Source: Myxococcales bacterium (GTDB lineage Bacteria; Myxococcota_A; Bradymonadia; REDH01). From it: DNA of 64,000 nucleotides. Position numbers and translations under genes: made by a program. The DNA lies in NCBI GenBank assembly GCA_947496715.1, contig CANMDT010000002.1, positions 3,398 to 67,397 of the forward strand, written 5' to 3'. Positions 1-46,071 of this stretch are shown here, one piece after another; within the stretch, counting starts at the first letter, position 1, and the number at the start of each line of letters is the position of its first letter. The notes beneath the pieces are model-generated. The model worked only from the letters and a program-made list of their open reading frames with translations. It was not told where the DNA came from and did no database searches.

Positions 1-1279
<1,279 letters not shown>

Positions 1280-1308
1280 CTGAACGCCCATCCCATCGAG
1301 AGTCCCCC

Positions 1309-2081
<773 letters not shown>

Positions 2082-2085
<4 letters not shown>

Positions 2086-3293
2086 GCGCCCCCCTCTCTC
2101 CGCTCCTTGAGGCAGCCGCAGCACGCGTGGCCGACGGCGGCAACAGGCCAGCTGCGGCCGCCGCGCTCGAACGGCTCCTGGCCACCGGCCTGCCCACCCG
2201 CCGCGACGAAGACTGGCGCTACCTCCAGCTCGCGCCGCTTGCAGCGCTGGCACCCGTCGCCGGCAGCGAGGCTCCGCTCCCCGAGCTCCCCGCTCCGCTC
2301 GACGGCGAGCTCCGGCTCGTCTTCGTCGACGGCCAGCTTGCCACAGCGCTCTCCTCGCCCGAGACCGCCTGGTCTGGCTGGAGGTCCGACCGCTCCGTGG
2401 AACCGCTCACCGCCTTCGGTGAGCTCGCCGCAGCCATCGCGCCCGCAGCCGTCGGCCTTGCGCTCCCGGCCGGCCTGCAGCTTGCCGGTCCGCTCCACCT
2501 GCTCTTCCTCCACACCCGCGCGGGCGCCACGCTCAGCGGTGCCACCTTCGCCCTCTCGCTGGGCCGCGGCACCGAGGCGACGCTCGTCGAGAGCCACCTC
2601 TCCGCCGACGGCGCAAACGGCCTCGCCACGGTCGCCCTCGACCTTACGCTCGCCGACGGCGCAGCCCTCACCCATATGAAGTTCCAGGAGCTCGGCCGCG
2701 GCCTCTCCCACCTCGCCGACACCCGCGTCACAACCAGCCGCGACGCCCGCTACAAGAGCGTCTCGCTCACGGGCGGCGCCCTGCTCTCGCGCGACACGCT
2801 CGCCGTCACCGTGAACGGCACCGGCGCCCACACCGAGCTGCAGGCCCTCTTCCTCCCCGGCGAAGGGCAGACACACGACCACCACACCGCGCTCGACCAG
2901 ACGCAGCCCGACTGCACCGCGCGCCAGGTCTACAAGAGCATCCTCCGCGGCAACGGCCACGCCATCTTCAACGGCAAGGTCTTTGTCCGGCAGGCCGCAC
3001 AGCGCACCAACGCCGACCAGTCGAGCAAGAGCCTGCTCCTCGACAAGGCCTGCCGCGTCGACGCCAAGCCCCAGCTCGAGATCTTCGCTGACGATGTCCG
3101 CTGCACCCACGGTGCCACCGTCGGCCAGCTCGACCCGGCCGAGCTCTTCTACCTCATGTCGCGGGCCATCCCGCGGAGCCGCGCCGAAGAGCTGCTGCTC
3201 CACGGCTTCGCCGTGGACGTCCTCAACGAACTCGGCCAACCCGCACTGCTCGAGCGCGGACTGGCGCTCCTCACCCGTTTCTCGGAGGCGTAG
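2082..3293 (+). CDS. sufD: Fe-S cluster assembly protein SufD
   Basis: C-terminal SufB/SufD beta-helix core motif (…[39 protein letters not shown]…). Position directly after sufC; start overlaps the sufC stop. Confidence 0.85.
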
Positions 3294-3295
3294 TC

Positions 3296-3868
3296 ATGGG
3301 CTTCTACATTCACGTTCAGGAGACACCCAACCCCAACGCGGTGAAGTTCATCTCCTTCTACACCGTGAAGTCGCACGGGAAGAGCAACTACCGGAGCGCC
3401 GAAGAGGGCGAGCATGTGCCCGTGGCACGCGAGATCTTCGCGGTCGGCGGCGTCGAGCAGATCTACCTCTTCGACAACTACATCACGGTCACCAAGCGGA
3501 GCGACCTGCCCTGGGGCGAGCTCTCCAAGAGCATCCTCGACCTGCTCCAGATGGCGCTGCCTGTGCATGACCCCGACTTCACCGACCCCGAGCCGCCGGC
3601 CTCGGAGAACCAGGTCGAGAAGACCCCCGAGATCCTCGCCATCGAGGAGATCCTCGACCGCACCGTGAAGCCCTACCTTGCGGCAGACGGCGGCGGCATC
3701 GAGGTCATCGAGCGCCAGGGCGACAAGATCTTCATCAAGTATCAGGGCGCCTGCGGCACCTGCCCCAGCTCGGTGGGCGGCACCCTCATCGCCATCCGCG
3801 ACGTACTCCGCGACGAGCTCGGCCCCGACATCGAGGTCATCGAAGTGGGCGGCGCGATGTTCGGCTAG
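3296..3868 (+). CDS. nfuA: Nfu/NifU-like Fe-S cluster scaffold/carrier protein
   Basis: N-terminal Nfu_N-like segment plus C-terminal NifU domain with a CxxC motif (…YQGACGTCPSS…). Starts 2 bp after the sufD stop, so part of the suf operon. Confidence 0.78.
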   Translation: MGFYIHVQETPNPNAVKFISFYTVKSHGKSNYRSAEEGEHVPVAREIFAVGGVEQIYLFDNYITVTKRSDLPWGELSKSILDLLQMALPVHDPDFTDPEPPASENQVEKTPEILAIEEILDRTVKPYLAADGGGIEVIERQGDKIFIKYQGACGTCPSSVGGTLIAIRDVLRDELGPDIEVIEVGGAMFG

Positions 3869-4205
3869 TGAGCTGAGCAGACCTCCAAAACGGCGAAGGG
3901 CCGGTGAGCGTGCCCGTGGTGCCGTCAGTGCTGCTGTCGACCACCTTCACGAGGCGGTTGTTCGCCGTCTCCGTGGTGGTGGCGAAGAGCGTCGCGGTGT
4001 TGGCGGTACAGGAGCCCGAGAGGCCGCGCAGGCTCCGGCCGTTGGCAACGGTGCAGGCTCGGATGTCGGCCGCGTTATCCCGCGTCATCTGCATGACCAA
4101 CCCACCCGCCCCAGCCCCCATCTGCGCCTCTGCCTCGACAGCCCGACCGGCCCTGAGTAAGCCCGCACCTGCGCCAGGTCGGCGCCCGACAGACGGAGCA
4201 GGCAG

Positions 4206-4973
4206 ATGGAACGCAAGGGTCAGATCGCATTGGTGGTAGGTGGTGCTTCGGGTCTTGGCGCGGCAACGGTCCGCCGCCTCCATGCAGCCGGCGTCCAGGT
4301 CTTCATCGGTGACCGCAACGCAGAGGTGGGCAACGCCCTCGCCGCAGAGCTCGGCGAAGGCGCCTCGTTTGTGCCGGTGGATGTGACCGATGAGGCCAGC
4401 GTGAAGGCTGCCGTCGCCACCGCCGCCGCTGCCGGCCCGCTTCGCATCGCCGTCAACACCGCCGGTGTTGGCATGGCCGCCAAGCTCCTCGGACGCGACG
4501 GCTCGCCGCACGACCTCGGCGTTTTCGAGATGGTCATGAAGATCAACCTCTTCGGCACCTTCAACGTGCTCCGTTACGCGGCCGCCGCCATGGCCACCAA
4601 CGAGCAGCTCCCGAGCGGCGAGCGGGGCGTGGTCATCAACACCGCCTCCATCGCCGGGTACGACGGCCAGATCGGCCAGATCGCCTATGCCTCCTCCAAG
4701 GCCGGCGTCATCGGCATGACGCTGCCCGCTGCCCGCGACCTCATGAAGAACAACATCCGGGTGGTCACCATCGCCCCCGGCGTCTTCGACACCCCGCTGC
4801 TCGCCATGCTCCCCGCACCCGCCCGCGAGGCGCTCGAGGCCACGGTCCCCAACCCCAGCCGGCTCGGCAAGCCCGATGAGTATGCCAAGCTGGCCTGTGC
4901 CATCATCGACAACGGCTACCTCAACGGCGAGGTCATCCGCCTCGATGGCGCGCTCCGGATGCCGCCCCGCTGA
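4206..4973 (+). CDS. Short-chain dehydrogenase/reductase (3-hydroxyacyl-CoA dehydrogenase type-2-like SDR)
   Basis: N-terminal Rossmann motif [13 protein letters not shown] motif and catalytic YASSKAG (YxxxK). 255 aa. Confidence 0.85.
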
Positions 4974-5046
4974 AGCGGGCAGGCCGCGCGGGGCAAGCGG
5001 GAGGAGCGGCAGACAGAGGGCGGGTGAGGTCCTTCGCCCATTCCTG

Positions 5047-5269
5047 CCCCAACGGGGCAGAGCATACCAGTCCAGGGCAACGCCCTGGGGATCATGCGAC
5101 GCACATTTCCGGACTCTAACGGAACGCCGCAGATCATCGCATCACCCACCCGCGCCCGAACGATTCCCCGCGCCCGAACGATGCGGCGCTTCTTCAGAGC
5201 GCATCCACAACCTCCACCCATTTCCCAGGGTTGCACCCTGGGCTGGTATGCGTTGACCCTTTGGGTCAA
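5047..5269. mobile_element. MITE-like non-coding element, copy 1
   Basis: ~220 bp element with imperfect terminal inverted repeats: left ...gcataccagtccagggcaacgccctgggg, right cccagggttgcaccctgggctggtatgc. Small GC hairpins at both extremities: ccccaacgggg and ttgaccctttgggtcaa. Internal direct repeat ccgcgcccgaacgat x2. Near-identical copies at 5568-5814 and a partial copy at 14499-14578. Confidence 0.55.
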
Positions 5270-5308
5270 ATGGGAACGCGGTGCTCCTGGCTGCTCCACC
5301 TCGGCGCC

Positions 5309-5491
5309 GGCGCCTCCTTCGTGGCGTTCGATATGACCCACGAGGCCAGCGTGAAGACCAACGTCCCTAACCCCAGCCGGCTCGGCAAGCCCGATGAGTA
5401 TGCCCAGCTCGCCTGTGCCATCATCGAGAATGGCTACCTCAACGGCGAGGTCATCCGCGCAGGCGGCGCGCTCCGGATGCCGCCCCGCTGA
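5309..5491 (+). pseudogene. Internally deleted fragment of the upstream SDR gene. Codons ~60-72 are fused to the last ~43 codons including the stop.
   Basis: DNA and translation ([16 protein letters not shown]|[44 protein letters not shown]) match SDR gene segments 4357-4405 and 4843-4973. Same deletion junction as the copy at 14617-14798. Confidence 0.7.
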
Positions 5492-5567
5492 AGCTGGCCT
5501 GTGCGCGGGGCAAGCGGAGCAGATAGTCGCGGTAGGCAGAGGGCGAGTGAGGTCCGTGACCAATCCC

Positions 5568-5814
5568 TGCCCCAACGGGGCAGAGCATACCAGCCCAGGG
5601 CAACGCCCTGGGGATCATGCCACGCAAATTTCCGCATGCTATCGGAACGCCGCAGTTCGTCGCATCACCCTCCCGCGCCCGAACGATTCCCCGCGCCCGA
5701 ACGATGCGGCGCTCCTTCAGAGCGCATCCACACCCTCCATCCCATGCCCCGCGTGCATGCCCACCATTCCCAGGGTTGCACCCTGGGCTGGTATGCGTTG
5801 ACCCTTTGGGTCAA
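5568..5814. mobile_element. MITE-like element, copy 2 (contains a ~25-bp internal insertion relative to copy 1)
   Basis: Same terminal inverted repeats and terminal hairpins as copy 1. Preceded by the same ~70-bp spacer that follows the intact SDR gene. Confidence 0.55.
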
Positions 5815-5821
5815 ACGGATC

Positions 5822-5839
5822 GCAGCCCTGCAGGGCTGC
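5822..5839 (-). terminator. Perfect 18-nt GC-rich palindrome (gcagccctgcagggctgc), candidate terminator stem ~50 nt downstream of the giant gene stop
   Basis: Perfect inverted repeat seen directly in the sequence. On the minus strand the stem is followed by GAUCCGUUUG, a weak U tract. Could act bidirectionally. Confidence 0.35.
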
Positions 5840-5887
5840 GCTACCGATGGCCCGCTTACAAGGGTCAAGGGTTCACTGCACCGCCCT

Positions 5888-8800
5888 CTACGGCACGGTC
5901 CGCGCGAGGCGAAGGCCGAGGTTGCCGTAGCGAATGGTCGGCGCGCCAGAGTATCGACCCCCGGCACGCGCGTAGCGTGAGGGGTTGGACCACGACCCAC
6001 CGCGAAACGCCCGGGCGGAGCCTGTGCTGGCGCCGAGCGGGTCGGTCACCGTGCCAGGGTAGGTCACATTGTACCAGTCGCCCGTCCACTCCCACACATT
6101 GCCAAGCATGTCGAAGAGGCCAAAGCTGTTTGCAGTTTTGCCGCCAACCGTGCGCGACCGGTTTCCGCTGTTGATGCACCACCAGTCAATGCTTTCCAGA
6201 TTGGCCTGTGCTGTCGTGCAATCGGTAGTCGCACCGCTCAGGTTCCCCAGGTAGGTGGCCGTGGTTGTGCCGCCACGCGCCGCATACTCCCACTCGCTCT
6301 CGGTGGGCAGCCTGAAGCCCGTGCAGGTGAGGCCCGCGAAGGTGGCACCCGTGCAACCGCTGTGGATGCCATCCCTCCAGCCGTTGGCCGCGTCGGTGCA
6401 ACCTGTGAGCGTGTAGCAGGAGGCGTGCCCCTCTGCGGCGGACTTGGCGTTGGCAAAGGCCAAGGCTGCGTACCAATCCAGGTACTCCACAGGGCCGCTG
6501 TCGTTGGCGTTGGTGGTGGTCTGTACCGTGCCGGTGGTGGACTGGAAGAAGGAGGGGTTGGTGCCGCTGCTCAGCGCCTTCCACTGCCCCTGCGTCACCT
6601 CTGTCTGACCCATGAAGAAGCGACGAGAGATGGTCACGCTATGCTGCGTTTCGTCCGTGTAGCGGCCCACCTCGGTGGAGGGCGAACCCATGGTGAAGGT
6701 ACCGGCGGGGATGTAGTTCATGCCGATAGGCGCGCAGCGGTCGTTGGCCGTGCCCGTCGGGCCGGTGGCGCAGTTGCCGGAGGCACACTCGGTGTTGAGC
6801 GTGCAGGAGGTGCCTACGAATGAGCCAAAGGAGCATACCCCAACATTGACCTCGTACCCGCTCGCGCAGGCCGATGCGATGCAGCTGGCGTAGACGCTCC
6901 CCGTCCAGGTCTGCGTGCCGGCCGTCGTGTTGGCGGGCAGGGTCGAGCAGCTACGCGTGTTGCTCAGGCAGGCGCCGCCCTCCACATGGTAGGTCGCAGC
7001 GCACGTCGTCGCTGTGCAGCTGCCATAGACGCTGGTGCCGCTGTTCCACGTCTCAGTCGCCACTGTTGCGTTGGCGAGCGAGCAGCTCCGGGTGTCGCTC
7101 AGGCAGGCACCGCCCTCCACATGGTAGGAGGTGGCGCAGGTCGTCGCAGTGCAGCTCCCATAGGCGCTGGTGGCGCTGTTCCAGCTCTGGGTGCCAGCCG
7201 TCGTATTGGCAGGCATCGGAGAACAGGTGCGGGTGTCGCTCAGGCAGGCGCCGCCCTCCAGATGGTAGGAGGCAGCGCAGGCCGTAGCCTCGCAGCTGCG
7301 CCAGCCGGTCGCGTTGGCCGCCTCGACGGCCGCGGTCGCGTTCGCGGGCAACGCTGCGCAGCTACGCGTGACTGTCCTAGCGAGGCGCAGGCCGAGCGTG
7401 TTGACGCGGTTGCTCGGCGCGCCGCGGCTGCGAAACGCAGCGCGTTCTTGGTTTGCGCTGTAGAGCCACGCCCCACCGCGACGCAATCGCTCGGAGCCCG
7501 TCGAGGGACCCGTCGGGTCGGTCACCGTACCAGGGTAGGTGCCATACCAGTCGCCCGTCCACTCAAAGACGTTGCCCAGCATGTCGGAGAGGGCAAAGCT
7601 GTTCACAGCTTTAAGGCCCACCGCTTGGGTACGAGATCCACTGGTCTTGCACCACCAGGCGATGCCATCCAGATAGGTCTGTGATCTCGTGCAATTGGTA
7701 ACCGTACTGCTCAGGTTCCCCAGATAGGTGGCCGTGGCGGTACCGGCCCGCGCCGCACGCTCCCACTCGCTCTCGGTGGGCAGCCGGTAGCCCGTGCAGG
7801 TGAGGCCCGAGAAGGTGGCGCCTGAGCACCCGCTGTGGATACCGTCTTTCCAGCCGTTGGCTGCGTCGGTGCAGCCCGTGAGCGCGTAGCAGGCGGTGAG
7901 GCCCTCTGCCGCGGATCGGGCGTTGGCGAAGGCGGCTGCCGCATACCAGTCCATGTACTCCGCGGGGCCGCTGTCGTTGGCGTTGGCAGTGCTCTGTGTC
8001 CTGACGAGCGTAGACTGGAAGAAGGAGGGGTTGAGGCCGCCGGAGAGCGCCTTCCACTGCCCCTGCGTCACCTCTGTTTGATTCATGAAGTAGCTGCGAG
8101 AGAGGGTCACGCTGTGCTGCGTCTCGTCGGCAACGCGGCCTCGTTCCGTCGAAGGCGAACCCATGGTGAAGGTGCCGGCGGGGATGTAGTTCATGCCGGT
8201 CGGCGCGCACCGGTCGTTGGCCGTTCCCGTCGGGCCCGTGGCGCAGAAGCCCGAGGCGCACTGGGCGCTGAGCGTGCAGGCTGCGCCGAGGCTCCCAATG
8301 CAGGCGCCAGCGACAACGTTGTAACTGCTCGCACAGGTCGTCGCCGTGCAGCTCCCATAGGCGCTGCCCGTCCAGGTCTGGGTGCCGGCCGTCGTGTTGG
8401 CGGGCATGGGAGAGCAGGTGCGGGTGTCGCTCAGGCAGGCGCCGCCCTCCACATGGTAGGAGGTGGCGCAGGTCGTCGCGGTGCAGCTTCCATAGGCGCG
8501 GGTGGCGCTGTTCCACGTTTGCGTGGCGGCCGTCGTGTTGGCAGGCATCGGAGAACAGGTGCGGGTGTTGCTCAGGCAGGCACCACCCTCGAGGTGGTAG
8601 GAGGCCGCGCAGGCCGTGACCTCGCAGGCGCCCCAGCCAGTGGAATTGGCCGCCTCGACGGCAGTGGTCGCATTCGCAGGCAACACGGCGCAGCCGCGCG
8701 TGACAGTCCTCGCGAGGCGCAAGCCGACATCGCCGGTGCGGCCGCCTGGCGCACCATCGACGCGAAACGCAGCCCGCGCGTTGCTGGCGCTGTAGAAGTA

Positions 8801-11800
8801 TGACCCGCCGCGAGCCACCCGCCGGGTGCCCGTCGTGACGCCGAGCGGGTCGGTCACCGTGCCTGGGTAGGTGCCATTCCAGTCGCCCGTCCACTCCCAG
8901 ACATTGCCCAGCATGTCGGAGAGGCCAAAGCTGTTTGCCGTCTTGCCGCCTACCGCCTGCGTGCGACTTCCGGCGTTCTTGCACCACCAGGCGATGCCAT
9001 CCAGATTGGCCTGCGCAGTGGTGCATCCTGTGACAGTTCCGCTCAGGTTGCCAAGGTAGGTGGCGGTGGTCGTTCCGCCACGCGCCGCATACTCCCACTC
9101 GCTCTCGGTGGGCAGCCGGTAGCCCCTGCAGGTGAGGCCCGCGAAGCTGGCGGCCGTGCAGCCGGTGTGGATGCCGTCCTTCCAGCCGTTTGCTGCGTCG
9201 GTGCAGCCCGTCAGCGTGTAGCAGGCGGTGAGCCCCTCTGCCGCGGACTTGGCGTTGGCAAAAGCCAAGGCTGCGTACCAATCTAGGTACTCCGCAGGGC
9301 CGAGGTTGTTGGCGTTGCTGGTGGTGCAGGCTGTGCCCGTCGTTGACTGGAAGCAGGAGGAGTTTGTGCCCCCGGAGATCGCCTTCCACTGCCCCTGCGT
9401 CACCTCAGTCTGCCCCATGAAGAAGCTTCGGGTAAGCGTCACGCTGTGCTGCGTCTCGTTGATCGCTCGGCCCACCTCGGTGGAGGGCGAACCCATCGTG
9501 AAGGTGCCGGCGGGGATGTAGTTCATGCCGGTAGGTGCGCACCGGTCGTTCTCGGTTCCCGCTGGGCCGGTGGCACAGACACCGCTGGCGCACTCGGCGT
9601 TGGCGGTGCAGGAGGTGCCGACGGATGAGCCCAAGGAGCATACACCTAAGTTGACATCGTACCCGCTCGCGCAGGCGGTCGCCGTGCAGCTTCCATAGGC
9701 GATGCCCGTCCAGGTCTGGGTGCCGGACGTGGTGTTGGCGGGCAGGGGCGAGCAGCTCCGCGTGTCGCTGAGACAGGCGCCGCCCTCCACATGGTAGGTC
9801 GCATCGCAGGCCGTGGCGTTGCAGGTTCCGTAGCTGCTCGTGACGCTGTTCCAGCTCTGCGCGCTGGCCGTTGCATTGTCGGGCAGGGGTGTGCAGCTCA
9901 GGGTGTCGCTCAGGCAGGCGCCGTCCTCGACATGGTAGGTCGCAGCGCAGGTCGTGGCGTTGCAGCTCCCATAGGCGCTGGTGCCGCTGTTCCAGGTCTG
10001 CGTGCCGGCCGTCGTGTTGGCGGGCAGGGGCGAGCAGCTCCGGGTGTCGCTCAGGCAGGCGACGCCCTCCAGATGGTAGGAGGTGGCGCAGGTCGTCACC
10101 GTGCAGCTTCCATAGGCGCTGGTGGCGCTGTTCCACGCCTGGGTGGCCAATGTGGCGTTCGGGAGCGAGCAGTTCCGGGTATCGCTCAGGCAGGCGCCCC
10201 CCTCCAGATGGTAAGAGGCCGAACAGGCCGTAGCCTCGCAGGCGCCCCAATCGGTAGCGGTGGCCGCCTCGATGGCTGCGGTCGCATTCGCCGGCAACGC
10301 GGCGCAGCCGCGCGCGACGGTCCTCGAAAGGCGAAAGCCGAGCGTGTTGAAGCGATTGACCGGCGCGCCGTTGCCCCAGGCGCGAAACGCGGCCTTCTCC
10401 CCGGTGGCGATGTACTGCCACGACCCACCGCGATACACGCGGTAAACGCCCGTCGTGGCGCCGAGCGGATCGGTCACCGTGCCAGGGTAGGTGCCGTACC
10501 AGTCGGCCGTCCATTCCCAGAGATTGCCCAGCATGTCGTAGAGGCCAAAGCTGTTTGCCGTCTTGCCGCCTACCGCCTGCGTGCGACCGCCAGCGTTGAT
10601 GCACCACCAGGCGATGCCGGCCAGATTGGCCTGTGCCGTGGTGCAATTGGTAACCGTACCACTCAGGTTCCCACCGTAGGTTGCCGTCGCCGTACCGGCC
10701 CGCGCCGCATACTCCCACTCGCTCTCCGTGGGCAGCCGGTAGCCCGTGCAGGTGAGGCCCGAGAAGGTGGCCCCCGTGCACCCGCTGTGGATACCGTCTT
10801 TCCATCCGTTGGCTACGTCGGTGCAGCCCGCGAGCGTGTAGCAGGAGGCGAGCCCCTCTGCCGCGGAGCGGGCGTTGGCAAAGGCGACTGCCGCATACCA
10901 GTCCATGTTCTCCGCGGGGCCTGCATTGTTGGCGTTGGCAGTGCTCTGTGTCGTGACGGTCGTGGACTGGAACCAGGAGGGGTTGAGGCCGCCGGAGAGT
11001 GCCTTCCACTCCCCCTGCGTGACCTCTGTAAGATTCATGAAGAAGCTGCGCGAGATGGTCACGCTATGCTGCGTCTCGTCGGCAACGCGGCCTACCTCGG
11101 TTGCGGGCGACCCCATCGTGAACGTTTCGGCCGGGATAAAGTTCATGCCGGTAGGCGCGCAGCGGTCGTTGGCCGTACCCGCAGGGCCGGTGGCACAGAA
11201 GCCGGTGGCGCACTGGGCATTGGCCGTGCAGGAGTTGCCGATGATGGGTTGCAGGCCGCAGGCACCTGCGCTCAAGATGTAGCCGCTCGCGCAGGTCGTG
11301 GCCGTGCAGGCGCCATAGGCGCTGCCCGTCCACGTCTCGGTCGCGACTGACGCATTGGCGAGCGAGCAGTCGCGGCTGTTGCTCAGGCAGGCTCCCGACT
11401 CCACGTGGTAGCCCGAGTTACAAATCCCAGGGGTGCAGCTGCCGTAGCTGCTGGTATCGCTGTTCCATGTCTCCGTGGCTGTACCGTTGGCCAGCGTGCA
11501 GACCCGTACATTGGCCACGCAGGCGGCGCTCTCGAGGTGATAGGAGGCGGCACAGGCGGTCGCCGTGCAGCTGCCGTAGCTCTCTGTGTCGCTGTCCCAG
11601 CTCCGGGTTGCTGCGGTCGCGTTGGCGAGCGTGCAACTCAGCTCGTCGGCCTCGCAGCTGTCGACCGCGATGTGGTAGCCGTCGTTGCAGCTCTCAAGGG
11701 TGCAGATGCCGTTATAGGAGTTGCCGGTCCACTGCTCGGTGCCCTCGCCGTTGGCCAACAGGCAGCTCCGCGTGTCGCTTGTGCAGAGGCCACCCTCAAG

Positions 11801-14278
11801 GTGGACGCCGGTGCCGCAGGCGCAGGCATCGCTGCAGCTGTCTTCATTGTCTGTGTTTCCATCGTCGCAGACCTCGGAGGCATCGAGGATGCCGTCGCCG
11901 CAGATGTGGGTCGCGCCCGCCGCGATGGTGCAGGTCGCGCTGCAGACAGCGCAGGAGGCCGCGCCGTAGGCGCACTCCTCGGTCACCGTGTTGCCGTCGT
12001 CGCAGCCATCCACGCCCGCCTGCTCCACGCCGTCGCCGCAGGTGGCAATTGTGCAGACAGTGGTGCAGGCGTCGGTGGCGTCCAGGTTGCCATCATCGCA
12101 GGCCTCGCCGGCCTCCACTGCGCTGTTGCCGCAACCGGCTGCCACGCATGCCCCCGCGAGCAGGCTGTAACCCGCATCACAGCCCGTCGCCGCACAGGCG
12201 GTGTAGTCGCTGCCCGTCCAGCTCTGCGTTGCCGTCGTCGCATTCGCGACGGAGCAGCTCAGCGTGTCGCTGGCGCAGGCGCCCGCCTCCACATGGTAGG
12301 TGGCATCGCAGGCAGTCGCCGTGCAGGCGCCATAGGCGCCCCCGGTCCAGCTCTCGAAGGCTGCAGTAGCGTTCGCCGCCACGCAGCTGCGGGCGTTGCT
12401 GGTGCAGACGCCGCTCTCCACATGGTAGCCTGCCCCACAGAGGCAGCTGTTGGAGCAACTGTCGTCATTGTCTGTGTTGCCGTCGTCGCAGAACTCGGCT
12501 GCATCCAGGGTGCCGTCGCCGCAGAGGTCGGTCTCGCCCGCCGCGCTAACGCAGGTCGCATTGCAAATGGTGCAGGAGGCCGCGCCATAGTTGCACTCTT
12601 CGGTCAGCACATTCCCATCGTCGCAGCCCTCTACACCCGCCTGCACCAGGCCGTCGCCGCAGGCGGCCACCGCGCAGCTGGCCGTGCAGCCATCGGTCGC
12701 CACCAGGTTGCCGTCGTCGCAGGCCTCGCCAGCCTCCACCACGCTGTTGCCGCATCCGGCCGCAACGCAGGTTCCGTTGGAGAGGGTGAATGCACCGTAA
12801 CAGGCGCTGGCCACGCAGCTGTTCCAGCTGCTGCCGTTCCAAGTCTGGTCGCCCGCGCCGCCCGTCAGCAAGCAGCTCCGCGCGTCGCTCGCGCAGGCGC
12901 CGCTCTCTACATGGTAGCCCGTATCGCAGCTGCTGGGCGCGCAACTGCTCCAGGCCGAACCGAGCCAGGTCTGGCTCCCCGCGCCGTCGGCGAGGGTACA
13001 ACTCCGCGTGTCGAGCTCGCAGGCGCCGCTCTGCGCGTGGTAGCCGGCGTTGCAGCCCGTGAGGGAGCAGCTTCCCCAGGCACCGGCATTGTAGGTGCGG
13101 CTTCCCGTACCGTTCGCCACCGCGCAGGCGCCGGTGTTCGACACGCAGTCGCCACCCTCGAGGTGATGGGTGGGAAGGCAGCCCGACGCCGTGCAGGCGC
13201 CATACTCAGCGCCGGTCCATGTCTCCGTTGCGGCGGTAGCGTCGGCAGACGAGCAGGAGCGGGTGTCGCTCGCGCAGCTGCCGCTCTCCATGTGGTAGCC
13301 GCTGTTGCAGCTCACGATGGCACATGCCGCCCAGCTGCCCGCGGCGTAGCTCTGGCTGCCGATCCCGTTGGTGATGGAGCAGGCGCGCATGTCGCTCGCG
13401 CAGGCACCACTCTCCACATGTTCGCCGCTCGGGCAGCCACCGGGTGAGCAGAGGCCGGCCGTGCAGGCCAGGTCGGCGGCGCAGTCAGCCGTGGCCGCAC
13501 AGCTCTGCCCCTGGGTGCGGCAGCCGAGCGCTTCGTCGGTGGCGCCGTCGCAGTCGTTGTCGAGGCCGTCACAGAGCTCCGTCACGTTGGCCACAACGCG
13601 ACCGGTGAAGGTAAAGTTGCTGCCCGACCGGGCAAAGACCCAGTTGCGGACGCCGGCATTGGCGGGCGCAGACGAGGCTGGGCCTAGGTCGCCATAGGCC
13701 CAGGAGCCGAGGCCGCTCGAGGCACCAGGGATCACATCTCCGTTCTGCACGCCAAACCCTGTTGAGGGGACCAGCGCCTGGATCTGGGCAAAGACCTGCG
13801 TTTGCGGTGATGTGTAGAAGGAGCGGACCGTGACCGCGCCGCAGAAGAGGGGCGAGGCCAGATAGCCTTCGCATGCAGCGTCGAGCCCCGTGGTCCCCGT
13901 CACGAGCTCGAGCGAGTTGGCAGGCCCGGAGCCGGCCACACCGTCCTGCACGATGCTGAGGGTGCAGAGCCCCTGCGCCAGCCGACGGAGTCTCGGGTCG
14001 GACGAGGCCGCGGGATCGAGCTTCGTGAGGACCATCGCGCCATTGGCGGTTACGGTGCCGCGGAACTCCGCGAGCGTCAGCAGCCCAGACAGTGGCTCGG
14101 TAGCGGCCTCTGCAGAGGCGTCGCCCTGCCCGCCGTCTGGCAGCAGGATCGCCGCGTCGGGGATGAAGAGCCCACCATCGGGCGCCGTTGGCAGCGCGGC
14201 GGTAGGAGCCTCATCCTGAGCGCAGGCGCCGAGGAGGAGAGCAAAGGGCAGGAGGCGTGCAACAGAGCGCAGCAGCAT
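5888..14278 (-). CDS. Giant secreted lipoprotein (2796 aa). Four tandem FGE-sulfatase (SUMF1 / formylglycine-generating-enzyme family) domains are each preceded by Cys-rich ~35-aa repeats. N-terminal region carries Myxococcus-type cysteine-rich repeats.
   Basis: Signal peptide with lipobox LLGAC. Four copies of the FGE-family signature (…GYRLPTESEWEYAARGG… / …NSFGLxDMLGNVWEWTxDW… / …RGGSW…GFRL…). Many 'CxxGYHxExGACxSDTRSC' repeats. CGDGxxxxGxExCDDGN myxobacterial Cys-rich repeats. CDGLDNDCDGATDE motif. Confidence 0.85.
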   Translation of the reverse strand: MLLRSVARLLPFALLLGACAQDEAPTAALPTAPDGGLFIPDAAILLPDGGQGDASAEAATEPLSGLLTLAEFRGTVTANGAMVLTKLDPAASSDPRLRRLAQGLCTLSIVQDGVAGSGPANSLELVTGTTGLDAACEGYLASPLFCGAVTVRSFYTSPQTQVFAQIQALVPSTGFGVQNGDVIPGASSGLGSWAYGDLGPASSAPANAGVRNWVFARSGSNFTFTGRVVANVTELCDGLDNDCDGATDEALGCRTQGQSCAATADCAADLACTAGLCSPGGCPSGEHVESGACASDMRACSITNGIGSQSYAAGSWAACAIVSCNSGYHMESGSCASDTRSCSSADATAATETWTGAEYGACTASGCLPTHHLEGGDCVSNTGACAVANGTGSRTYNAGAWGSCSLTGCNAGYHAQSGACELDTRSCTLADGAGSQTWLGSAWSSCAPSSCDTGYHVESGACASDARSCLLTGGAGDQTWNGSSWNSCVASACYGAFTLSNGTCVAAGCGNSVVEAGEACDDGNLVATDGCTASCAVAACGDGLVQAGVEGCDDGNVLTEECNYGAASCTICNATCVSAAGETDLCGDGTLDAAEFCDDGNTDNDDSCSNSCLCGAGYHVESGVCTSNARSCVAANATAAFESWTGGAYGACTATACDATYHVEAGACASDTLSCSVANATTATQSWTGSDYTACAATGCDAGYSLLAGACVAAGCGNSAVEAGEACDDGNLDATDACTTVCTIATCGDGVEQAGVDGCDDGNTVTEECAYGAASCAVCSATCTIAAGATHICGDGILDASEVCDDGNTDNEDSCSDACACGTGVHLEGGLCTSDTRSCLLANGEGTEQWTGNSYNGICTLESCNDGYHIAVDSCEADELSCTLANATAATRSWDSDTESYGSCTATACAASYHLESAACVANVRVCTLANGTATETWNSDTSSYGSCTPGICNSGYHVESGACLSNSRDCSLANASVATETWTGSAYGACTATTCASGYILSAGACGLQPIIGNSCTANAQCATGFCATGPAGTANDRCAPTGMNFIPAETFTMGSPATEVGRVADETQHSVTISRSFFMNLTEVTQGEWKALSGGLNPSWFQSTTVTTQSTANANNAGPAENMDWYAAVAFANARSAAEGLASCYTLAGCTDVANGWKDGIHSGCTGATFSGLTCTGYRLPTESEWEYAARAGTATATYGGNLSGTVTNCTTAQANLAGIAWWCINAGGRTQAVGGKTANSFGLYDMLGNLWEWTADWYGTYPGTVTDPLGATTGVYRVYRGGSWQYIATGEKAAFRAWGNGAPVNRFNTLGFRLSRTVARGCAALPANATAAIEAATATDWGACEATACSASYHLEGGACLSDTRNCSLPNATLATQAWNSATSAYGSCTVTTCATSYHLEGVACLSDTRSCSPLPANTTAGTQTWNSGTSAYGSCNATTCAATYHVEDGACLSDTLSCTPLPDNATASAQSWNSVTSSYGTCNATACDATYHVEGGACLSDTRSCSPLPANTTSGTQTWTGIAYGSCTATACASGYDVNLGVCSLGSSVGTSCTANAECASGVCATGPAGTENDRCAPTGMNYIPAGTFTMGSPSTEVGRAINETQHSVTLTRSFFMGQTEVTQGQWKAISGGTNSSCFQSTTGTACTTSNANNLGPAEYLDWYAALAFANAKSAAEGLTACYTLTGCTDAANGWKDGIHTGCTAASFAGLTCRGYRLPTESEWEYAARGGTTTATYLGNLSGTVTGCTTAQANLDGIAWWCKNAGSRTQAVGGKTANSFGLSDMLGNVWEWTGDWNGTYPGTVTDPLGVTTGTRRVARGGSYFYSASNARAAFRVDGAPGGRTGDVGLRLARTVTRGCAVLPANATTAVEAANSTGWGACEVTACAASYHLEGGACLSNTRTCSPMPANTTAATQTWNSATRAYGSCTATTCATSYHVEGGACLSDTRTCSPMPANTTAGTQTWTGSAYGSCTATTCASSYNVVAGACIGSLGAACTLSAQCASGFCATGPTGTANDRCAPTGMNYIPAGTFTMGSPSTERGRVADETQHSVTLSRSYFMNQTEVTQGQWKALSGGLNPSFFQSTLVRTQSTANANDSGPAEYMDWYAAAAFANARSAAEGLTACYALTGCTDAANGWKDGIHSGCSGATFSGLTCTGYRLPTESEWERAARAGTATATYLGNLSSTVTNCTRSQTYLDGIAWWCKTSGSRTQAVGLKAVNSFALSDMLGNVFEWTGDWYGTYPGTVTDPTGPSTGSERLRRGGAWLYSANQERAAFRSRGAPSNRVNTLGLRLARTVTRSCAALPANATAAVEAANATGWRSCEATACAASYHLEGGACLSDTRTCSPMPANTTAGTQSWNSATSAYGSCTATTCATSYHVEGGACLSDTRSCSLANATVATETWNSGTSVYGSCTATTCAATYHVEGGACLSNTRSCSTLPANTTAGTQTWTGSVYASCIASACASGYEVNVGVCSFGSFVGTSCTLNTECASGNCATGPTGTANDRCAPIGMNYIPAGTFTMGSPSTEVGRYTDETQHSVTISRRFFMGQTEVTQGQWKALSSGTNPSFFQSTTGTVQTTTNANDSGPVEYLDWYAALAFANAKSAAEGHASCYTLTGCTDAANGWRDGIHSGCTGATFAGLTCTGFRLPTESEWEYAARGGTTTATYLGNLSGATTDCTTAQANLESIDWWCINSGNRSRTVGGKTANSFGLFDMLGNVWEWTGDWYNVTYPGTVTDPLGASTGSARAFRGGSWSNPSRYARAGGRYSGAPTIRYGNLGLRLARTVP
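5900..11400. repeat. Four imperfect tandem DNA repeats (~1.4-1.6 kb each) inside the giant gene, one per FGE-domain module
   Basis: Alternative-frame minus-strand ORFs beginning at ~6584, ~7950, ~9389 and ~11009 give near-identical translations (MEG…QPLLLPVH.RH.T.H.QRQ…). This shows nucleotide-level periodicity. The protein has four FGE modules. Confidence 0.75.
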
Positions 14279-14284
14279 GGGAGA

Positions 14285-14495
14285 TCTTCCAGAGGCATGG
14301 TCCTAGCGCGCGAGCGAAAGCCAGATTGTAAATGAGGATTGGCTTACAAACGTAACCGAAAGGTCATACGGAATCAAAAAAGGAGCGCCGAGATAGTTTG
14401 ATCGTCCGCAGTCTCGAATCAGATAAAATCTAGAATGACTCTCGAAATGTGTGTTCGAAAATCTAACAAATGTATGTAATTTTCCATTCTATCGT
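14285..14495 (-). promoter_or_regulatory. AT-rich island (GC far below the ~70% background), presumed promoter/leader of the giant gene. Contains inverted repeat TTGTAAatgaggattggcTTACAA (14326-14349).
   Basis: Lies directly upstream of the minus-strand start at 14278. The compositional contrast is visible by eye (…gtaaatgaggattggcttacaaacgtaaccgaaaggtcatacggaatcaaaaaagg…). Confidence 0.45.
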
Positions 14496-14498
14496 GGC

Positions 14499-14578
14499 TC
14501 CTTCAGAGCGCATCCATACCCAACATCCCATTCCCAGGGTTGCACCCCGGGCTGGTAGGCGTTGACCCTTTGGGTCAA
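14499..14578. mobile_element. MITE-like element, copy 3 (right-hand ~80 bp only; left part missing at the junction with the AT-rich island)
   Basis: …cttcagagcgcatcca…cccagggttgcaccccgggctggtaggcgttgaccctttgggtcaa matches the right half and right inverted repeat of copies 1 and 2. Confidence 0.5.
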
Positions 14579-14616
14579 ACGGGACCCGGCGCTCTTCGCA
14601 GCTCAGCCTAGGCGAC

Positions 14617-14798
14617 GGCGCCTCCTTCGTGGCAGTCGATGTGACCGACGAGGCCCGCATGAAAACCACCGTCCCCAACCCCAGCCGGCTCGGCAAGCCC
14701 GATGAGTATGCCCAGCTGGCCTGTGCCATCATCGACAACGGCTACCTCAACGGCGAGGTCATCCGCCTCGATGGCGCGCTCCGGATGCCGCCGCGGTA
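14617..14798 (+). pseudogene. Second copy of the internally deleted SDR gene fragment
   Basis: [17 protein letters not shown]|[43 protein letters not shown] shows the same internal deletion junction as 5309-5491. Confidence 0.7.
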
Positions 14799-14858
14799 GG
14801 GCAACGCGTACCGCAGTTCTTGCGAACCGCCGAGTTCGACAGGTAAACTGCGGGCGCC

Positions 14859-17800
14859 ATGACGACCCCTGTACATTTTGGACCCTTTCTGGTGCGCGAG
14901 CGGATCGGTGTAGGCGGCTTCGGCGAAATCTACCGCGCGGTGCATCAGGAGGCTGGCCTCGAAGTGGCGATCAAGGTTGTGACTGCGGAAGTAGCGCGTC
15001 ATCCATCATATCTGAATGATTTTCGTAGGGAAGTTCGTGCCGTGGCCGGGCTGGACCACCCGAATATCGTTCAGGTCTTTGACTACGGCACCATCCCTTC
15101 GAAGGCCGCCGCTGCACTCCCAAGACTGGTCGCTGGTAGCCCCTATCTCGTGATGGAGCTCGCTTCGGGTTCCGTAGCCGACCTGCCGATGCCAATGGCA
15201 TGGCAGACCTGCAGGATGCTCCTCCACGACCTGCTCTCTGCGCTCGGCCATGCCCATTCGAGGGGACTGGTTCACCGAGACATCAAGCCTGGAAACACGC
15301 TACTCGTCGATGGACGCGAAGGACGCATCGTCAGGCTCTCTGACTTTGGCATCGCCCAGAACTGGGGAGTCAAGGATGGCGGCGTTGAGCTGGACGCTGC
15401 GGTAGGCACCCCGTTTTACATGGCTCCGGAGCAGTTCGCCGCGCGCTGGCGCGACTTCGGCCCCTGGACCGACCTTTATCAGGTCGGAATCTTCGCCTTC
15501 GAGATGGCCTTTGGAGTGTACCCCTTTCAAGCTGACACCTTCATGGGTTTCGGGCTGCAGCACCTTCGCGCACCGCTGCCGCGCATGCCGGTTCCCGCCG
15601 GCTACCCGGCAGGTTTTGGTGACTGGCTCCAGACGATGTGCGCGAAGGAGACCCGAAGGCGCTTCGCCTCTGCGGCAGAAGCTGGTTGGGCGCTCGCAGC
15701 ACTGGAGGACATGGGGCGGCCCGAGCCAGACGCGGAAGGCCGCGGGCGCACGGAGTTTGGCGTGTTTCGCAGGAGACGCGCAGACTTGGGTGCCTTCGAG
15801 GCGACACTGGGAGGTAGGATCGACGGCGGCGGCCAAACGCTGATGTTCGATCCGTCACTCACCGACAGCCTTGCAGATCATCCTGTCCAACAGGAACCGA
15901 CGACCCATGGGATTCCGTGGCAGCCGGCGCCGATCGAGGGGCAGACGGGAAGCGCGGGCGCCCGTCTCGGCAGCGTCGGTGCGGGACTCTTCGGGCTGCG
16001 AACCATCCCCATTGTGGGTCGAGAGGCAATTCAACAGCAGTTGTGGGCGGCGCTGCGGAAGCGACACCTCAAGCGAGAGCCTGCCGCGGCGCTGCTTGGA
16101 GGCAGCGCGGGCGTTGGCAAGAGCAGACTCGCAGCGTGGCTCACCGACTCTGCCACGGAGCTGGGATTGGCATCATCCGTGGTCATCCGGAGCGGTCCCG
16201 AAGAGGGCAGCGGCCTGCTGGGCCGGACCGTGGCCGAACGCTACCGCTGCAATGGGTTGAAGCGGCTGGAGGCACGGCTTCGTTTGGAGCAAGTGCTCGC
16301 GGAAGAGGGTGTTACGGATCGTGCAGAGGTTGAGGGTCTGGTTGCTCTCGTGAGCGAGGGCCTTGCGGGAGTCGAACCGCCAGAAAGCAGCGCACGAACC
16401 ATCAGGTTCGGTAGCCCGCTCGAACGACAGGCGGTCTTTGAACAGCTGCTGAGACGAGCCGCTGCGCGACAGCCGGTTCTGGTCTGGCTGGATGATGCCC
16501 ACTTCGGCGGAGAAGCACTCGCAGCCATGGTTTCCATTGCGCGTCAGGCACGAGACCTTCCCCTGCTCACCCTGGTCACCTTCCGCGAAGACCTGCTCGA
16601 AGACCGACCGGTTGAACGGGCGCTGCTCGAGGAGCTGGCAGCGCACTCCGCGAGCACGACCATCATCGTGCCGCCTCTGGATGAAGAGGCGCAACATGAG
16701 CTGGTCGCTCGGATGCTGGGGCTGAGTGGAGCGCTGGCGGCGAGTATCCGAATGCGTGCAGCTGGCAACCCCCTGTTCGCGGTGCAGCTTGTCGGCGATC
16801 TCATCGCGCGAGGCGAGCTTGTTGGCAGGCCAGGCGGCTTCTCGCTGCGAACCGGGATAACGCTCCGACTCCCGAACGATGTTCGTTCACTTTGGCTCGG
16901 CCGCATCGAGCAGGTCGTGTCGGAATCGGGACCCGATGTGAAGGTTGCGCTGGAGCTTGCGGCCCTGCTCGGTGTCAGTGTCGACGGTCAGGCGTTCGCA
17001 GAGCTGAGCCGGCGTGTGGGGCTGATCGACGGTTCAGCGCTTCTGGGCTCGGTCGCGGGCACCGGTCTGATCGAACAGACCTCGGTCGGTTGGCGCCTCG
17101 CGCACCCGCTCCTGCGGGACACTCTCGAGCGCGAGGCGCGGACCCGGATCGACTGGATGGACTGGAACCACGCCTGCGCGGAGGCGCTCACTACCATCTA
17201 CGATCGGGGCATGCGTGGCCTATCCGCGCGGCGGGCAGGCTACCTCGCCGAGGCCCTTGCGTGGGACGAGGCACTAGAGGCGATCACAGAGGCCGTAGCA
17301 GAGGCACTTCACGCGGGTGAGACACTACCCATCCCGGAGCTGCTCGACCGGCAATCCGAGATTTTGGACGCGCTCCGAGTGCCGAGCTGTGATCCTCGTC
17401 GGGCAGAGGCGCTGTTGACGCGGGCAGAGGCCTACCGGCTGCAGTGGAACTTCGGTGCAGCGGCAGAGTGGGCTGACCTTGCGCTGGCGGCGGCAGACCG
17501 CGCAAGCAGCCCCCGGCTGCGGGGCGAAGCCTACCTTTGTCGAATGCACATCGCACGCCAGCAGGGTGACAGCGGGCAGGCAGAGGTTCTTGCCACGGAG
17601 GCGCTGACGACCTTCCGCACCTTGGACGACGGCCGCGGCCTCGGACGCACCTATCTCGGCTTGGCCATTCTGCTCCGGACGCAGGGCCGTATCACGGAGG
17701 CCTTGGGAAACTACGAGCGCGCCCTGGCAGAGTTTGTCGAGATTGGTGACGAAGTGAGCGCGGCGCGCTGCCGGCTCGGGGTGGCCCACCTGCATCGCGG

Positions 17801-18401: not shown

Positions 18402-18470
18402 GGAGAAAGCTTGGCCACGCAGCGAACCGGCGTGCTAGAACCCCTCCAACAGGCTCTGCAGGTGAGGACG

Positions 18471-20558: not shown

Positions 20559-20565
20559 GAGCTGC

Positions 20566-30804: not shown

Positions 30805-30960
30805 GAGACTGCGTCTGCTGGTTCGGGTGTGTGCGCGCGGCACGGGAGCGGCGGTTGCTAGCACGAAGGGTGGGAGGTTGCGAGAGCGGCGGTTCTGCTT
30901 GCGGTTGGCGAGGCAAGCGATCATGCACGCAAGACTCTTTCACCCCGTGCGTCCTCCCCG

Positions 30961-36213: not shown

Positions 36214-36289
36214 GAGTGGCTCCGCAGGGAGTGGGTGGGCGTGCAAAGATGGGGCGAGCGTGGCCGCATGGCAAGGCTGGCAGAGAGCG

Positions 36290-36345
36290 ATGCCATGTTT
36301 CGGGGCAGGCCAAAAGTTTGCTCCGATCGGCAGGCGCGGGCGGCG
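36290..36345 (+). promoter_or_regulatory. ~56-bp conserved motif, copy A (cagagagcgatgccatgtttcggggcaggccaaaagtttgctccgatcggcagg)
   Basis: Near-identical copy at 37397-37452 in the same orientation. Each lies ~60-100 bp upstream of a plus-strand gene start. Contains the 8-bp palindrome ccgatcgg. Confidence 0.4.
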
Positions 36346-36445
36346 CTGCGACCGTTCCGCCGCCCCGCTCCAAAAATCTGCAGGCCCATCCGCAACAACG
36401 GGCCGCAGACGCCGATAACCGACCATCACAACTTCGTGAGGTCAC

Positions 36446-37396: not shown

Positions 37397-37452
37397 ACGG
37401 GGCCAGCAGAGAGCGATGCCATGTTTCGGGGCGGGCCAAAAGTTTGCGCCGA
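37397..37452 (+). promoter_or_regulatory. ~56-bp conserved motif, copy B
   Basis: cagagagcgatgccatgtttcggggcgggccaaaagtttgcgccgatcggcagg, 61 bp upstream of the AMIN/coiled-coil gene start. Confidence 0.4.
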
Positions 37453-37512
37453 TCGGCAGGATCCGTAGAAGTTGGCAGACCGATTTCTATCCCCGCACCG
37501 TTCCGCTGCCGC

Positions 37513-45973: not shown

Positions 45974-46071
45974 TCCGTCCTCCAGTCGGCCTCGTAGGGG
46001 TTCGTGTAGGGCGCGGTTTTGCCGCGGCGGCGGCGGCGCTGTCAAGCCTCAGGTGGCGGGGGCGTTCGACG

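Follow-up and report, generated by a model that had tools for sequence, protein, structure and literature searches.

FGE-type C-type-lectin domains are the commonest scaffold on which DGRs generate new binding specificities, and to our knowledge ligands are known for almost none of these domains. A non-catalytic FGE-sulfatase domain is also present in GldK/PorK and GldJ, lipoproteins that belong to the machinery for type IX secretion and gliding. The DGR protein TvpA is a variable, non-enzymatic binding protein, and the last 45 amino acids form its variable region (PMC5758913; PMC6328139). [quoted passage not shown] TraA of Myxococcus xanthus has a lectin-like head and a lipid-type anchor, its stalk consists of Cys-rich tandem repeats, and it is polymorphic between strains (PMC3325183). 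Here we describe a gene whose product carries four FGE-type heads on putative Cys-rich stalks. Homology and variability suggest, and we consider it probable with some reserve, that the product is a giant secreted, lipid-anchored and multivalent binding protein (an adhesin or receptor) and not an enzyme.

The gene lies on the reverse strand of the window, the 64-kb stretch of DNA that was analysed (Table 1). Its GC3 of 0.84 matches that of the high-GC3 neighbouring genes. An identical protein (P0001) is found in the ENA metagenomes, and full-length orthologs of 2794-2797 residues are present as well (P0150, P0152, P0155, P0158 and P0162). Promoter and terminator scans of both gene flanks returned no match, and an Rfam search of the 64-kb window gave no family. 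The N-terminus, MLLRSVARLLPFALLLGAC, starts with a positive n-region, followed by a hydrophobic core and a lipobox-like LGAC, with LLLGAC spanning residues 14-19. All orthologs retain the lipobox Cys (LLLSAC, LFLAGC), and it is conserved in homologs too. The protein thus carries a signal peptide that ends in a lipobox Cys, as expected of a lipoprotein, and is probably lipidated. The preliminary description had spoken of a lipoprotein and of adhesion; both terms are still read from the sequence. The N-terminal domain that follows (residues ~60-231) gave zero matches in Pfam and NCBIfam and zero sequence matches in the PDB.

Table 1. Features of the giant gene and its product, with positions in the 64-kb window.
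Feature	Residues	Position	Strand	Basis
Whole gene	2796 aa + stop codon	5888..14278	(-)	ORF, ATG start
Predicted signal peptide and lipobox, MLLRSVARLLPFALLLGAC	1-19	14222..14278	(-)	sequence reading; Cys conserved in orthologs
N-terminal domain	~60-231	13586..14101	(-)	common to P0010 and P0160
MopE-like CDGxDNDCDG motif	232-249	13532..13585	(-)	PF11617, 23.3 bits against a cutoff of 27 (sub-threshold)
Cys-rich ~45-aa repeats, block 1	281-500	12779..13438	(-)	repeat motifs
Three myxo-type CGDG...CDDGN repeats	506-613	12440..12763	(-)	TIGR02232, DUF4215, C-x-DGN motifs
Cys-rich repeats, block 2	614-711	12146..12439	(-)	repeat motifs
Three myxo-type CGDG...CDDGN repeats	712-820	11819..12145	(-)	TIGR02232, C-x-DGN motifs
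Cys-rich repeats, block 3 (stalk of head 1)	821-1009	11252..11818	(-)	repeat motifs
FGE-type C-type-lectin-fold head 1, including the 4-Cys linker before RCAP	1010-1322	10313..11251	(-)	Pfam, domain profile
Hypervariable tail of head 1 (TvpA variable-region equivalent)	1273-1318	10325..10462	(-)	19/43 residues differ between the window and P0155
Cys-rich repeats, block 4	1323-1549	9632..10312	(-)	repeat motifs; model
FGE-type head 2	1550-1861	8696..9631	(-)	Pfam, domain profile
Hypervariable tail of head 2	1813-1856	8711..8842	(-)	22/44 residues differ in P0002, 19/42 in P0152
Cys-rich repeats, block 5	1862-1993	8300..8695	(-)	repeat motifs
FGE-type head 3	1994-2304	7367..8299	(-)	Pfam, domain profile; AF2 model
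Hypervariable tail of head 3	2257-2300	7379..7510	(-)	23/44 residues differ from P0155
Cys-rich repeats, block 6	2305-2484	6827..7366	(-)	repeat motifs
FGE-type head 4	2485-2796	5891..6826	(-)	Pfam, domain profile
Tail of head 4	2749-2792	5903..6034	(-)	unlike the other three heads; nearly constant between strains

The Pfam FGE-sulfatase profile PF03781 matched the protein in four stretches with a total of 533 bits (E 1.5e-160), far over the cutoff of 23.3 bits, in agreement with the four FGE-sulfatase domains of the preliminary description. The domain profile set the heads at residues 1010-1322, 1550-1860, 1994-2304 and 2485-2796. The true FGEs (human SUMF1 and those of Streptomyces coelicolor and Thermomonospora curvata) share PF03781 and the overall fold with the heads, and the Foldseek probability of the head model against FGE structures is 1.00; identity to them is 20-22%, however, and the TM score is about 0.65. 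Absence of the active-site Cys pair, already suspected from the letters, was borne out by alignment to human and Streptomyces FGE: the Cu(I)-binding catalytic pair (human C336/C341) is missing from all four heads. The C336 position is occupied by Tyr, Tyr, Tyr and Asn in heads 1 to 4, respectively, and the C341 loop is absent in all of them. In the alignment of head 3, human Cys336 lies opposite Tyr and the Cys341 loop is deleted; in that of head 4, SWSNPSRYA stands opposite SYLCHDSYC of the Streptomyces enzyme. No Cys occurs across the catalytic-pair stretch of the four-head alignment, and 78 of 83 family domains have at most one Cys in their last 95 residues. Neither finding that would have spoken against the preliminary description was made: the HMM scores are not sub-threshold, and the heads do not retain the catalytic pair.

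The best PDB relative by sequence is not an FGE but TvpA (E 2.6e-35 and 3.5e-28, compared with 1e-13 to 1e-18 for the true FGEs). An AF2 model of head 3 (pLDDT 90) also found TvpA as its best fold match in the PDB (E 2.3e-21, TM 0.80, 31% identity). By sequence and by model, the heads are predicted to adopt the C-type-lectin fold in its FGE subtype with TvpA as the nearest relative, as in TvpA-class DGR variable proteins. TvpA has no FGE activity and displays a variable ligand-binding surface in its last ~45 residues within the same RGGSW...GFRLA frame as the heads; it differs in being a single-domain protein varied by a reverse transcriptase and a template repeat, whereas the present protein bears four heads in one 2796-residue putative lipoprotein with Cys-rich stalks between them. 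The proposal that the domains are co-opted binding modules gains support from this relationship and from the variable active-site region described below. The highest NCBIfam score of the protein went to GldK/PorK (TIGR03525), but the 317 bits were spread over eight stretches and fell under the cutoff of 350, and the TM score was 0.36; the 38 largest ORFs of the window include no por/gld (type IX secretion) gene.

The fold is also common to FGE, EgtB and PvdO, and the heads might instead form a multi-enzyme that acts on an extracellular substrate and catalyses an oxidative reaction other than formylglycine formation, in the manner of PvdO or EgtB. PvdO lacks the Cys pair and is nevertheless named a dehydrogenase in NCBIfam, so loss of the pair does not exclude every catalytic role. 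The NCBIfam scores, even summed over the four domains, stay below the cutoffs (PvdO 279 of 500, EgtB 181 of 360 and OvoA 52 of 400), and no DinB-type iron-binding domain is present. Membership in the PvdO and SenA families was rejected on the curated NCBIfam cutoffs, and a sulfoxide synthase of the EgtB or OvoA type (TIGR03440 and TIGR04344) was rejected as well, only the C-terminal part of the models being matched. The 38 largest ORFs of the window contain no sulfatase gene (PF00884). The residues equivalent to the active site show the lowest conservation within the family and vary from head to head in the protein; the FGE active-site region is occupied by the family's most variable positions, which is incompatible with a conserved catalytic site. 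We regard a multi-enzyme as highly improbable.

The hypervariable positions of the domain all fall within its C-terminal ~45 residues, as in TvpA-class DGR variable proteins. Invariant columns among the four heads make up 25% of the tails versus 55-80% elsewhere. Across 83 domains of the subfamily, about 16 tail positions reach an entropy of 3.3-3.6 bits and are rich in Y, S, N, D, G and F; around them runs a conserved frame, RGGSW...AR.A.R...P..R...LGFRLAR. In the tails, but not in the core, variation is as frequent at codon positions 1 and 2 as at position 3, and 31% of tail codons, against 6% of core codons, carry two or three nucleotide changes. Compared with the ortholog L159, the window gave a dN/dS of 1.17 for the head 1 and head 3 tails and of 0.22 for the cores, dS being similar in both; for the tails of heads 2 and 4 the ratio in this pair, the two strains with DNA, was not elevated (0.39). 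Differences between strains are all-or-none: a tail differs at 0 of 44 positions or at 19-25 of 44. P0002 and P0152, which carry another tail on head 2, are only 2-7% divergent from the window protein outside it.

This variability sits exactly at the site of the TvpA variable region, and an alternative is that the four tails are variable regions of a DGR elsewhere in the genome, whose reverse transcriptase would copy a template repeat, erring specifically at its adenines, and replace the tails with the copies. Such a remote element would fit the nearness of the heads to TvpA, the many variable codons of the form NNC or NNT and the all-or-none tail differences. Distant single-domain relatives do have true template/variable pairs at the tail position, with a reverse transcriptase beside the template. 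A DGR at the window locus itself was rejected: RVT_1 had no match in the 38 largest ORFs of the window, no tail-like copy outside the gene came up when the tails were compared by blastn with the remainder of the 64 kb, and a home-made template/variable scan, which searches for repeat pairs with A-biased mismatches, returned no pair involving the gene. No DGR reverse transcriptase was found in a 15-kb ortholog contig either. Applied to the ortholog L159 and to close relatives (L001, L002, L160, L161 and L162), the template/variable scan was also negative; it was positive in L012, L039, L040, L045, L072, L094, L100 and L120, where true positives were verified by Pfam. About 55% of the tail nucleotide columns differ among the four heads, too many to stem from the adenines of a single template. 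Synonymous differences are present in the scaffold codons, and the tails have the same dS as the background. In eight proteins or fragments from different assemblies, which are 1.5-3.5% divergent elsewhere from the window protein, the unswapped tails are identical, which argues against ongoing hypermutation. We hold a remote DGR to be distinctly unlikely. If one did serve all four tails, the protein would have four separately diversified binding sites and would be the largest multi-site DGR target known.

Most of the remaining chain consists of Cys-rich repeats, and Cys accounts for 179 of the 2796 residues. About 20 units of ~45 residues share four invariant Cys together with a YH-x-E hairpin and the motif N-x-[ST]. 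As had been noted from the letters, the heads are preceded by two to four of these disulfide-type repeats (runs of 4, 4, 2 and 3 full units), and myxobacterial CGDG...CDDGN repeats occupy the N-terminal region. The latter were recovered by TIGR02232 (myxo_disulf_rpt) at 87 bits against a cutoff of 20.8, DUF4215 matching as well, and contribute six C-x-DGN motifs in two blocks of three, the first at residues 520, 552 and 597. A model of three repeats from block 4 (residues 1370-1508; pLDDT 95) is predicted to be all β-hairpins. Foldseek found nothing significant for it in the PDB; the best E value was 0.5, with faint matches to fibronectin type I. The ~45-residue four-Cys repeat has neither a Pfam model nor a PDB match and is found in about 1000 protein clusters. 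It accompanies many unrelated extracellular head domains (FGE, Ig, RCC1, CBM60, Laminin_G and esterases), which points to a general stalk module that deserves a family definition of its own.

The layout, with a secretion signal, a head of lectin fold, a stalk of Cys-rich tandem repeats and a membrane anchor, recalls TraA (PMC3325183). By analogy, the protein might be a polymorphic receptor for self- or kin recognition, with heads that bind identical heads on neighbouring cells and tail alleles that set the groups. The repeats are of the myxobacterial type, and discrete tail alleles do occur in otherwise nearly identical strains. The defining TraA features, a PA14 head, TIGR04201 repeats and a MYXO-CTERM tag, were nevertheless not detected with Pfam and NCBIfam, no traB-like partner adjoins the gene, and TraA has one head, the present protein four. 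Homotypic binding is not known for FGE-type lectin folds, and the source, a freshwater organism resembling delta-proteobacteria, is uncultured. Kin recognition therefore appears to us an improbable role.

As a multivalent binding protein, the product would be exported, probably lipidated at the lipobox Cys and putatively exposed at the surface. Most of the chain may form an extended, disulfide-stapled array of small β-hairpin modules, built from the four-Cys and CGDG/CDDGN repeats, that would serve as a stiff stalk and spacer for four globular heads. Each head would present a distinct ligand-binding face formed by about 16 variable positions of the C-terminal ~45 residues; that these positions are exposed is carried over from the TvpA literature. 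Four faces per molecule could allow multi-specific binding, or binding of high avidity, to a target that is itself heterogeneous, for instance the surface of another cell, a polysaccharide or a particle. The faces do not appear to be changed by a retroelement at this locus; between strains, diversifying selection and the exchange of entire tails or domains may alter them. The more specific proposal of a multi-headed recognition repertoire, in which a DGR-type scaffold is varied without a retroelement by positive selection and by swaps of tails or heads, possibly also of head number, we consider rather unlikely. With or without a DGR, the protein, if correctly read, would be a surface receptor with four independently evolvable specificities. 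The same scaffold and variable face, apparently varied here by ordinary evolution through selection and recombination, offer a natural comparison of retroelement-driven and selection-driven variation, and the four related yet distinct heads could be expressed singly for ligand discovery.

The common WEWTGDWY pattern saturated a metagenome scan, in which the matches listed were all distant relatives. The variants with two or three heads, P0002 and P0163, stem from contigs of short-read metagenomes, and their lower head number could reflect collapse during assembly. Tandem FGE-sulfatase proteins with two to seven copies recur in metagenomes and in several phyla (P0003, P0004, P0008, P0009, P0013, P0016 and P0018; loci L001, L007 and L017). 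These giants, all uncharacterised, frequently share the Cys-rich repeats, the myxo-type repeats and the lipobox with the present protein; they differ in the number of heads, in their spacers (thrombospondin-like or MopE-like) and in extra domains (VWA, PPC and LTD). Together with the three-domain DGR target in the literature (PMC5758913), they indicate that the architecture is less unusual than the preliminary description had held.

The ORF of the giant gene is real and encodes 2796 amino acids; its GC3 (0.84) is similar to that of the neighbouring high-GC3 genes. Independent assemblies of ENA, JGI and NCBI metagenomes contain one identical protein and five more full-length orthologs (2794-2797 aa); the four-module layout is therefore no single-assembly artefact. 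Pfam profile search identified FGE-sulfatase in four stretches (E 1.5e-160), hereafter heads 1-4, and the NCBIfam model of the myxo-type cysteine-rich acidic repeat, TIGR02232, scored 87 bits against a cutoff of 20.8. Six C-x-DGN motifs form two groups of three. Elsewhere, the Cys-rich sequence is built from ~20 units of ~45 aa; every unit has four invariant cysteines, a C-x3-YH-x-E-x-G-x-C hairpin, S-D-T-R, an N-x-[ST] motif and a tryptophan. The N-terminus carries a signal peptide ending in a lipobox cysteine, which is kept in the orthologs and in more distant homologs. The architecture given in the preliminary description, four FGE-type domains alternating with Cys-rich repeats and preceded by a lipoprotein signal and myxo-type repeats, is thus confirmed.

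Features of the window (nucleotides, or residues where marked aa) and of related loci
Feature	Position	Strand	Remarks
Giant gene	5888..14278	minus	
Heads 1, 2, 3, 4	aa 1010-1322, 1550-1860, 1994-2304, 2485-2796	minus	domain profile
SDR gene	4206-4973		
SDR mini-copies, internally deleted	5258-5491 and 14566-14799	plus	one per side of giant gene
~88-nt elements	5188-5275, 5733-5820, 14497-14584		two hairpins each, CCCAGGGTTGCACCCTGGG and TTGACCCTTTGGGTCAA
5'-side trio	14859-24423		1180-aa kinase (AAA_16, TPR), 715-aa protein, 1285-aa beta-helix protein
Peptide-N-glycosidase F C-terminal domain protein	35050-36429	minus	21 kb from giant gene
ORF without Pfam match	37444-41610	plus	1388 aa; eight tandem 159-nt units at 39991-41295
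DUF7790 gene	48845-50224	plus	
Second FGE-sulfatase protein, single-domain	50221-51300	plus	359 aa; own lipobox LAAGCASS
Large secreted-type proteins	20566-24423, 43394-46045, 46072-48906, 61725-63809, 26509-30924, 53996-57913		
L120 DGR cassette	2051-10420		template 9306-9443 directly 3' of RVT_1 gene 8170-9306; matches three FGE-sulfatase genes
L100 DGR cassette	93-3160		targets include caspase-FGE fusion proteins
L045 DGR cassette	3-5255		targets include caspase-FGE fusion proteins
L161, single-head relative with its neighbours	9086-15500		
L162, gene row	139-15928		

No Pfam or NCBIfam model covers the ~45-aa unit, which would form the stalk that carries the heads. A predicted structure of three repeats (pLDDT 95) contains short β-hairpins only and had no significant match in the PDB (best E 0.5); the faint matches include fibronectin type I modules, which resemble the stalk repeat in length (~45 aa) and have two disulfides. 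A stalk-repeat profile retrieved 984 proteins at E <= 1e-3, and 557 at E <= 1e-10, from 1.84 billion cluster representatives. Partner domains in 45 sampled proteins were FGE-sulfatase (7), Ig-like, esterases, RCC1, CBM60, Laminin_G and BNR; RCC1, LTD and VWA partners were also present in the initial homolog search. Judged from this diversity of partners, the repeat is probably a general extracellular spacer and not specific to FGE heads. Its N-x-[ST] motif (NAT, NGT or NTT; for example at aa 1374, 1421 and 1468) is kept in at least 90% of stalk repeats across homologs and could act either as a structural Asn turn or as a sequon for N-glycosylation. The window also encodes a peptide-N-glycosidase F C-terminal domain protein, to which we draw no link.

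An alignment of all four heads has no cysteine in the region of the FGE catalytic pair. SWSNPSRYA of head 4 lies opposite SYLCHDSYC of Streptomyces FGE; in head 3, a tyrosine lies opposite Cys336 of human FGE and the three-residue Cys341 loop is missing. At most one cysteine occurs in the last 95 residues of 78 of the 83 subfamily domains. The suspected lack of the pair is borne out by these alignments, and on sequence grounds the heads are not formylglycine-generating enzymes. Residues of the FGE active-site region are the least conserved of the family, which speaks against any catalysis being conserved and in favour of a variable face for binding. The NCBIfam models specific to the enzymes PvdO, EgtB, SenA and OvoA, as well as those for GldK and GldJ, all scored under their curated cutoffs despite four domains adding to the score.

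The best solved relative by sequence is TvpA, a variable protein of Treponema denticola (E 2.6e-35 for head 4 and 3.5e-28 for head 3, versus 1e-13 to 1e-18 for true FGEs). Module 3 was modelled with AlphaFold over two and a half stalk repeats, the linker and the head; the mean pLDDT was 90, and the 4-Cys linker before the head was the only uncertain part. Foldseek against the PDB ranked TvpA first (E 2.3e-21, TM 0.80 on target, 31% identity), followed by PvdO and FGEs (TM ~0.65, 20-24% identity). TvpA, which lacks FGE activity, is considered a ligand-binding protein; the last 45 residues form its variable region, diversified by a diversity-generating retroelement (DGR) (PMC5758913; PMC6328139). 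In alignments of heads 4 and 3, this region pairs with the final ~45 residues of the heads, here called the tail.

In the alignment of the four heads, invariant columns make up 55-80% over most of the domain but only 25% in the tail. Variation at codon positions 1, 2 and 3 was 0.57, 0.55 and 0.52 in the tails and 0.23, 0.22 and 0.46 in the cores. Across the 83 subfamily domains, ~16 tail positions reach an entropy of 3.3-3.6 bits, with Y, S, N, D, G and F prominent, within a fixed frame of RGGSW, AR.A.R, P, R and LGFRLAR. When the window was compared with the locus of ortholog P0155 (L159), residues differed by 44-52% in the tails of heads 1 and 3 and by 16-19% in their cores. The dN/dS ratio was 1.17 in these tails and 0.22-0.24 in cores, stalk repeats and N-terminus, dS being similar in tails and other regions; codons with two or three nucleotide changes made up 31% in tails and 6% in cores. 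The inter-head, subfamily and inter-strain comparisons all place the variability in one and the same stretch, the tail. With the Cys pair absent, TvpA the best match by sequence and fold, and the tail variable, the earlier reading of the heads as probable non-catalytic binding modules is supported and made more specific.

Diversification of the tails by a DGR was the main alternative; one located elsewhere in the genome appears improbable. We scanned for template/variable repeat pairs with at least 75% of mismatches on adenines of one copy. Eight loci of distant relatives (30-38% identity; L012, L039, L040, L045, L072, L094, L100 and L120) were positive, and in all three checked (L045, L100 and L120) the variable region formed the extreme terminus of an FGE-sulfatase protein; in L120, the template is immediately preceded by an RVT_1 gene. 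The scan can thus detect such pairs, and in other members of the family the tail is a true target of DGRs. For the giant gene, however, no A-biased pair was found in the window, L159 or the close relatives L001, L002, L160, L161 and L162. Reverse transcriptase had no match among the 38 largest ORFs of the window, and a blastn search with the four tails returned nothing but noise in the remainder of the window. Three further observations speak against current retrohoming at this locus. The four heads differ from one another in ~55% of tail nucleotide columns, exceeding what the adenines of one template allow; frame codons vary at synonymous sites, with tail dS at background. Outside the tails, eight proteins or fragments taken from separate assemblies diverge by 1.5-3.5% from the window protein; their tails showed either 0 or 19-25 differences in 44 residues. 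This all-or-none pattern indicates occasional replacement of a tail or whole head between strains and not continuous hypermutation.

We propose that the protein would be a lipid-anchored, multivalent binding protein, whose rigid disulfide-rich stalk would display four lectin-fold heads of the TvpA type. Every head would have a separate binding face, and the faces would be under diversifying selection and exchanged between strains. TraA of Myxococcus is an architectural analogue (lectin-like head, Cys-rich stalk, lipid-type anchor, polymorphic), but none of its defining domains was found in the window protein.

Within the species collection, the closest genome is that of an uncultured delta-proteobacterium, a MAG from Lake Erken (70% identity). 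FGE-sulfatase is an expanded family in some myxobacteria. Among 138 profile-matching proteins, 23 have two tandem FGE-type copies, four have three, and one each has four, five and seven; tandem matches include Bryobacterales, Oligoflexales and Nitrospinales MAGs. [quoted passage not shown] Of the orthologs, P0163 (2352 aa) has three heads, module 3 missing, and P0002 (1860 aa) has two, the head 2 core being joined to a head-4-type tail that is unlike all other head-4 tails at ~20 positions. This pattern is either real copy-number variation by inter-module recombination or short-read assembly collapse. Relative locus L162 carries four large Cys-rich-repeat or FGE protein genes in a row, an RCC1 protein with DUF4215 (1638 aa) followed by FGE proteins of 932, 513 and 1975 aa. 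In L161, the gene of a close relative with one head is bordered by an SDR gene on one side and a gene for a 714-aa DsbA and thioredoxin-domain protein on the other; this second neighbour is in keeping with a demand for disulfide formation.

The giant gene is flanked on its 3' side by the SDR gene and a SUF iron-sulfur operon, and on its 5' side by a Ser/Thr kinase with AAA_16 and TPR regions, a function-unassigned protein and a beta-helix protein; none suggests a pathway. The SDR neighbour is retained in ortholog P0152, and the 5' neighbours differ in P0155. GC3 of the 5'-side trio is 0.70-0.73 versus 0.83-0.94 in the rest of the window, and synteny on this side is absent in ortholog contig L159. 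In each SDR mini-copy, which is preceded by an ~88-nt two-hairpin element, ...GASFV.VD.T.EA..K is joined to a 40-letter protein stretch; their presence on both sides points to a past duplication or rearrangement around the giant gene. The second FGE-sulfatase gene is directly downstream of the DUF7790 gene, and its product's tail, RGGSWYWGSECATG, has one cysteine and no FGE pair. The region of the 1388-aa ORF has an extreme AT skew (0.37-0.52) at 71-73% GC. Very large proteins of secreted type are unusually frequent in the window, which encodes four right-handed beta-helix proteins, one 1471-aa protein (no Pfam match) and one 1305-aa VWA-OmpA protein.
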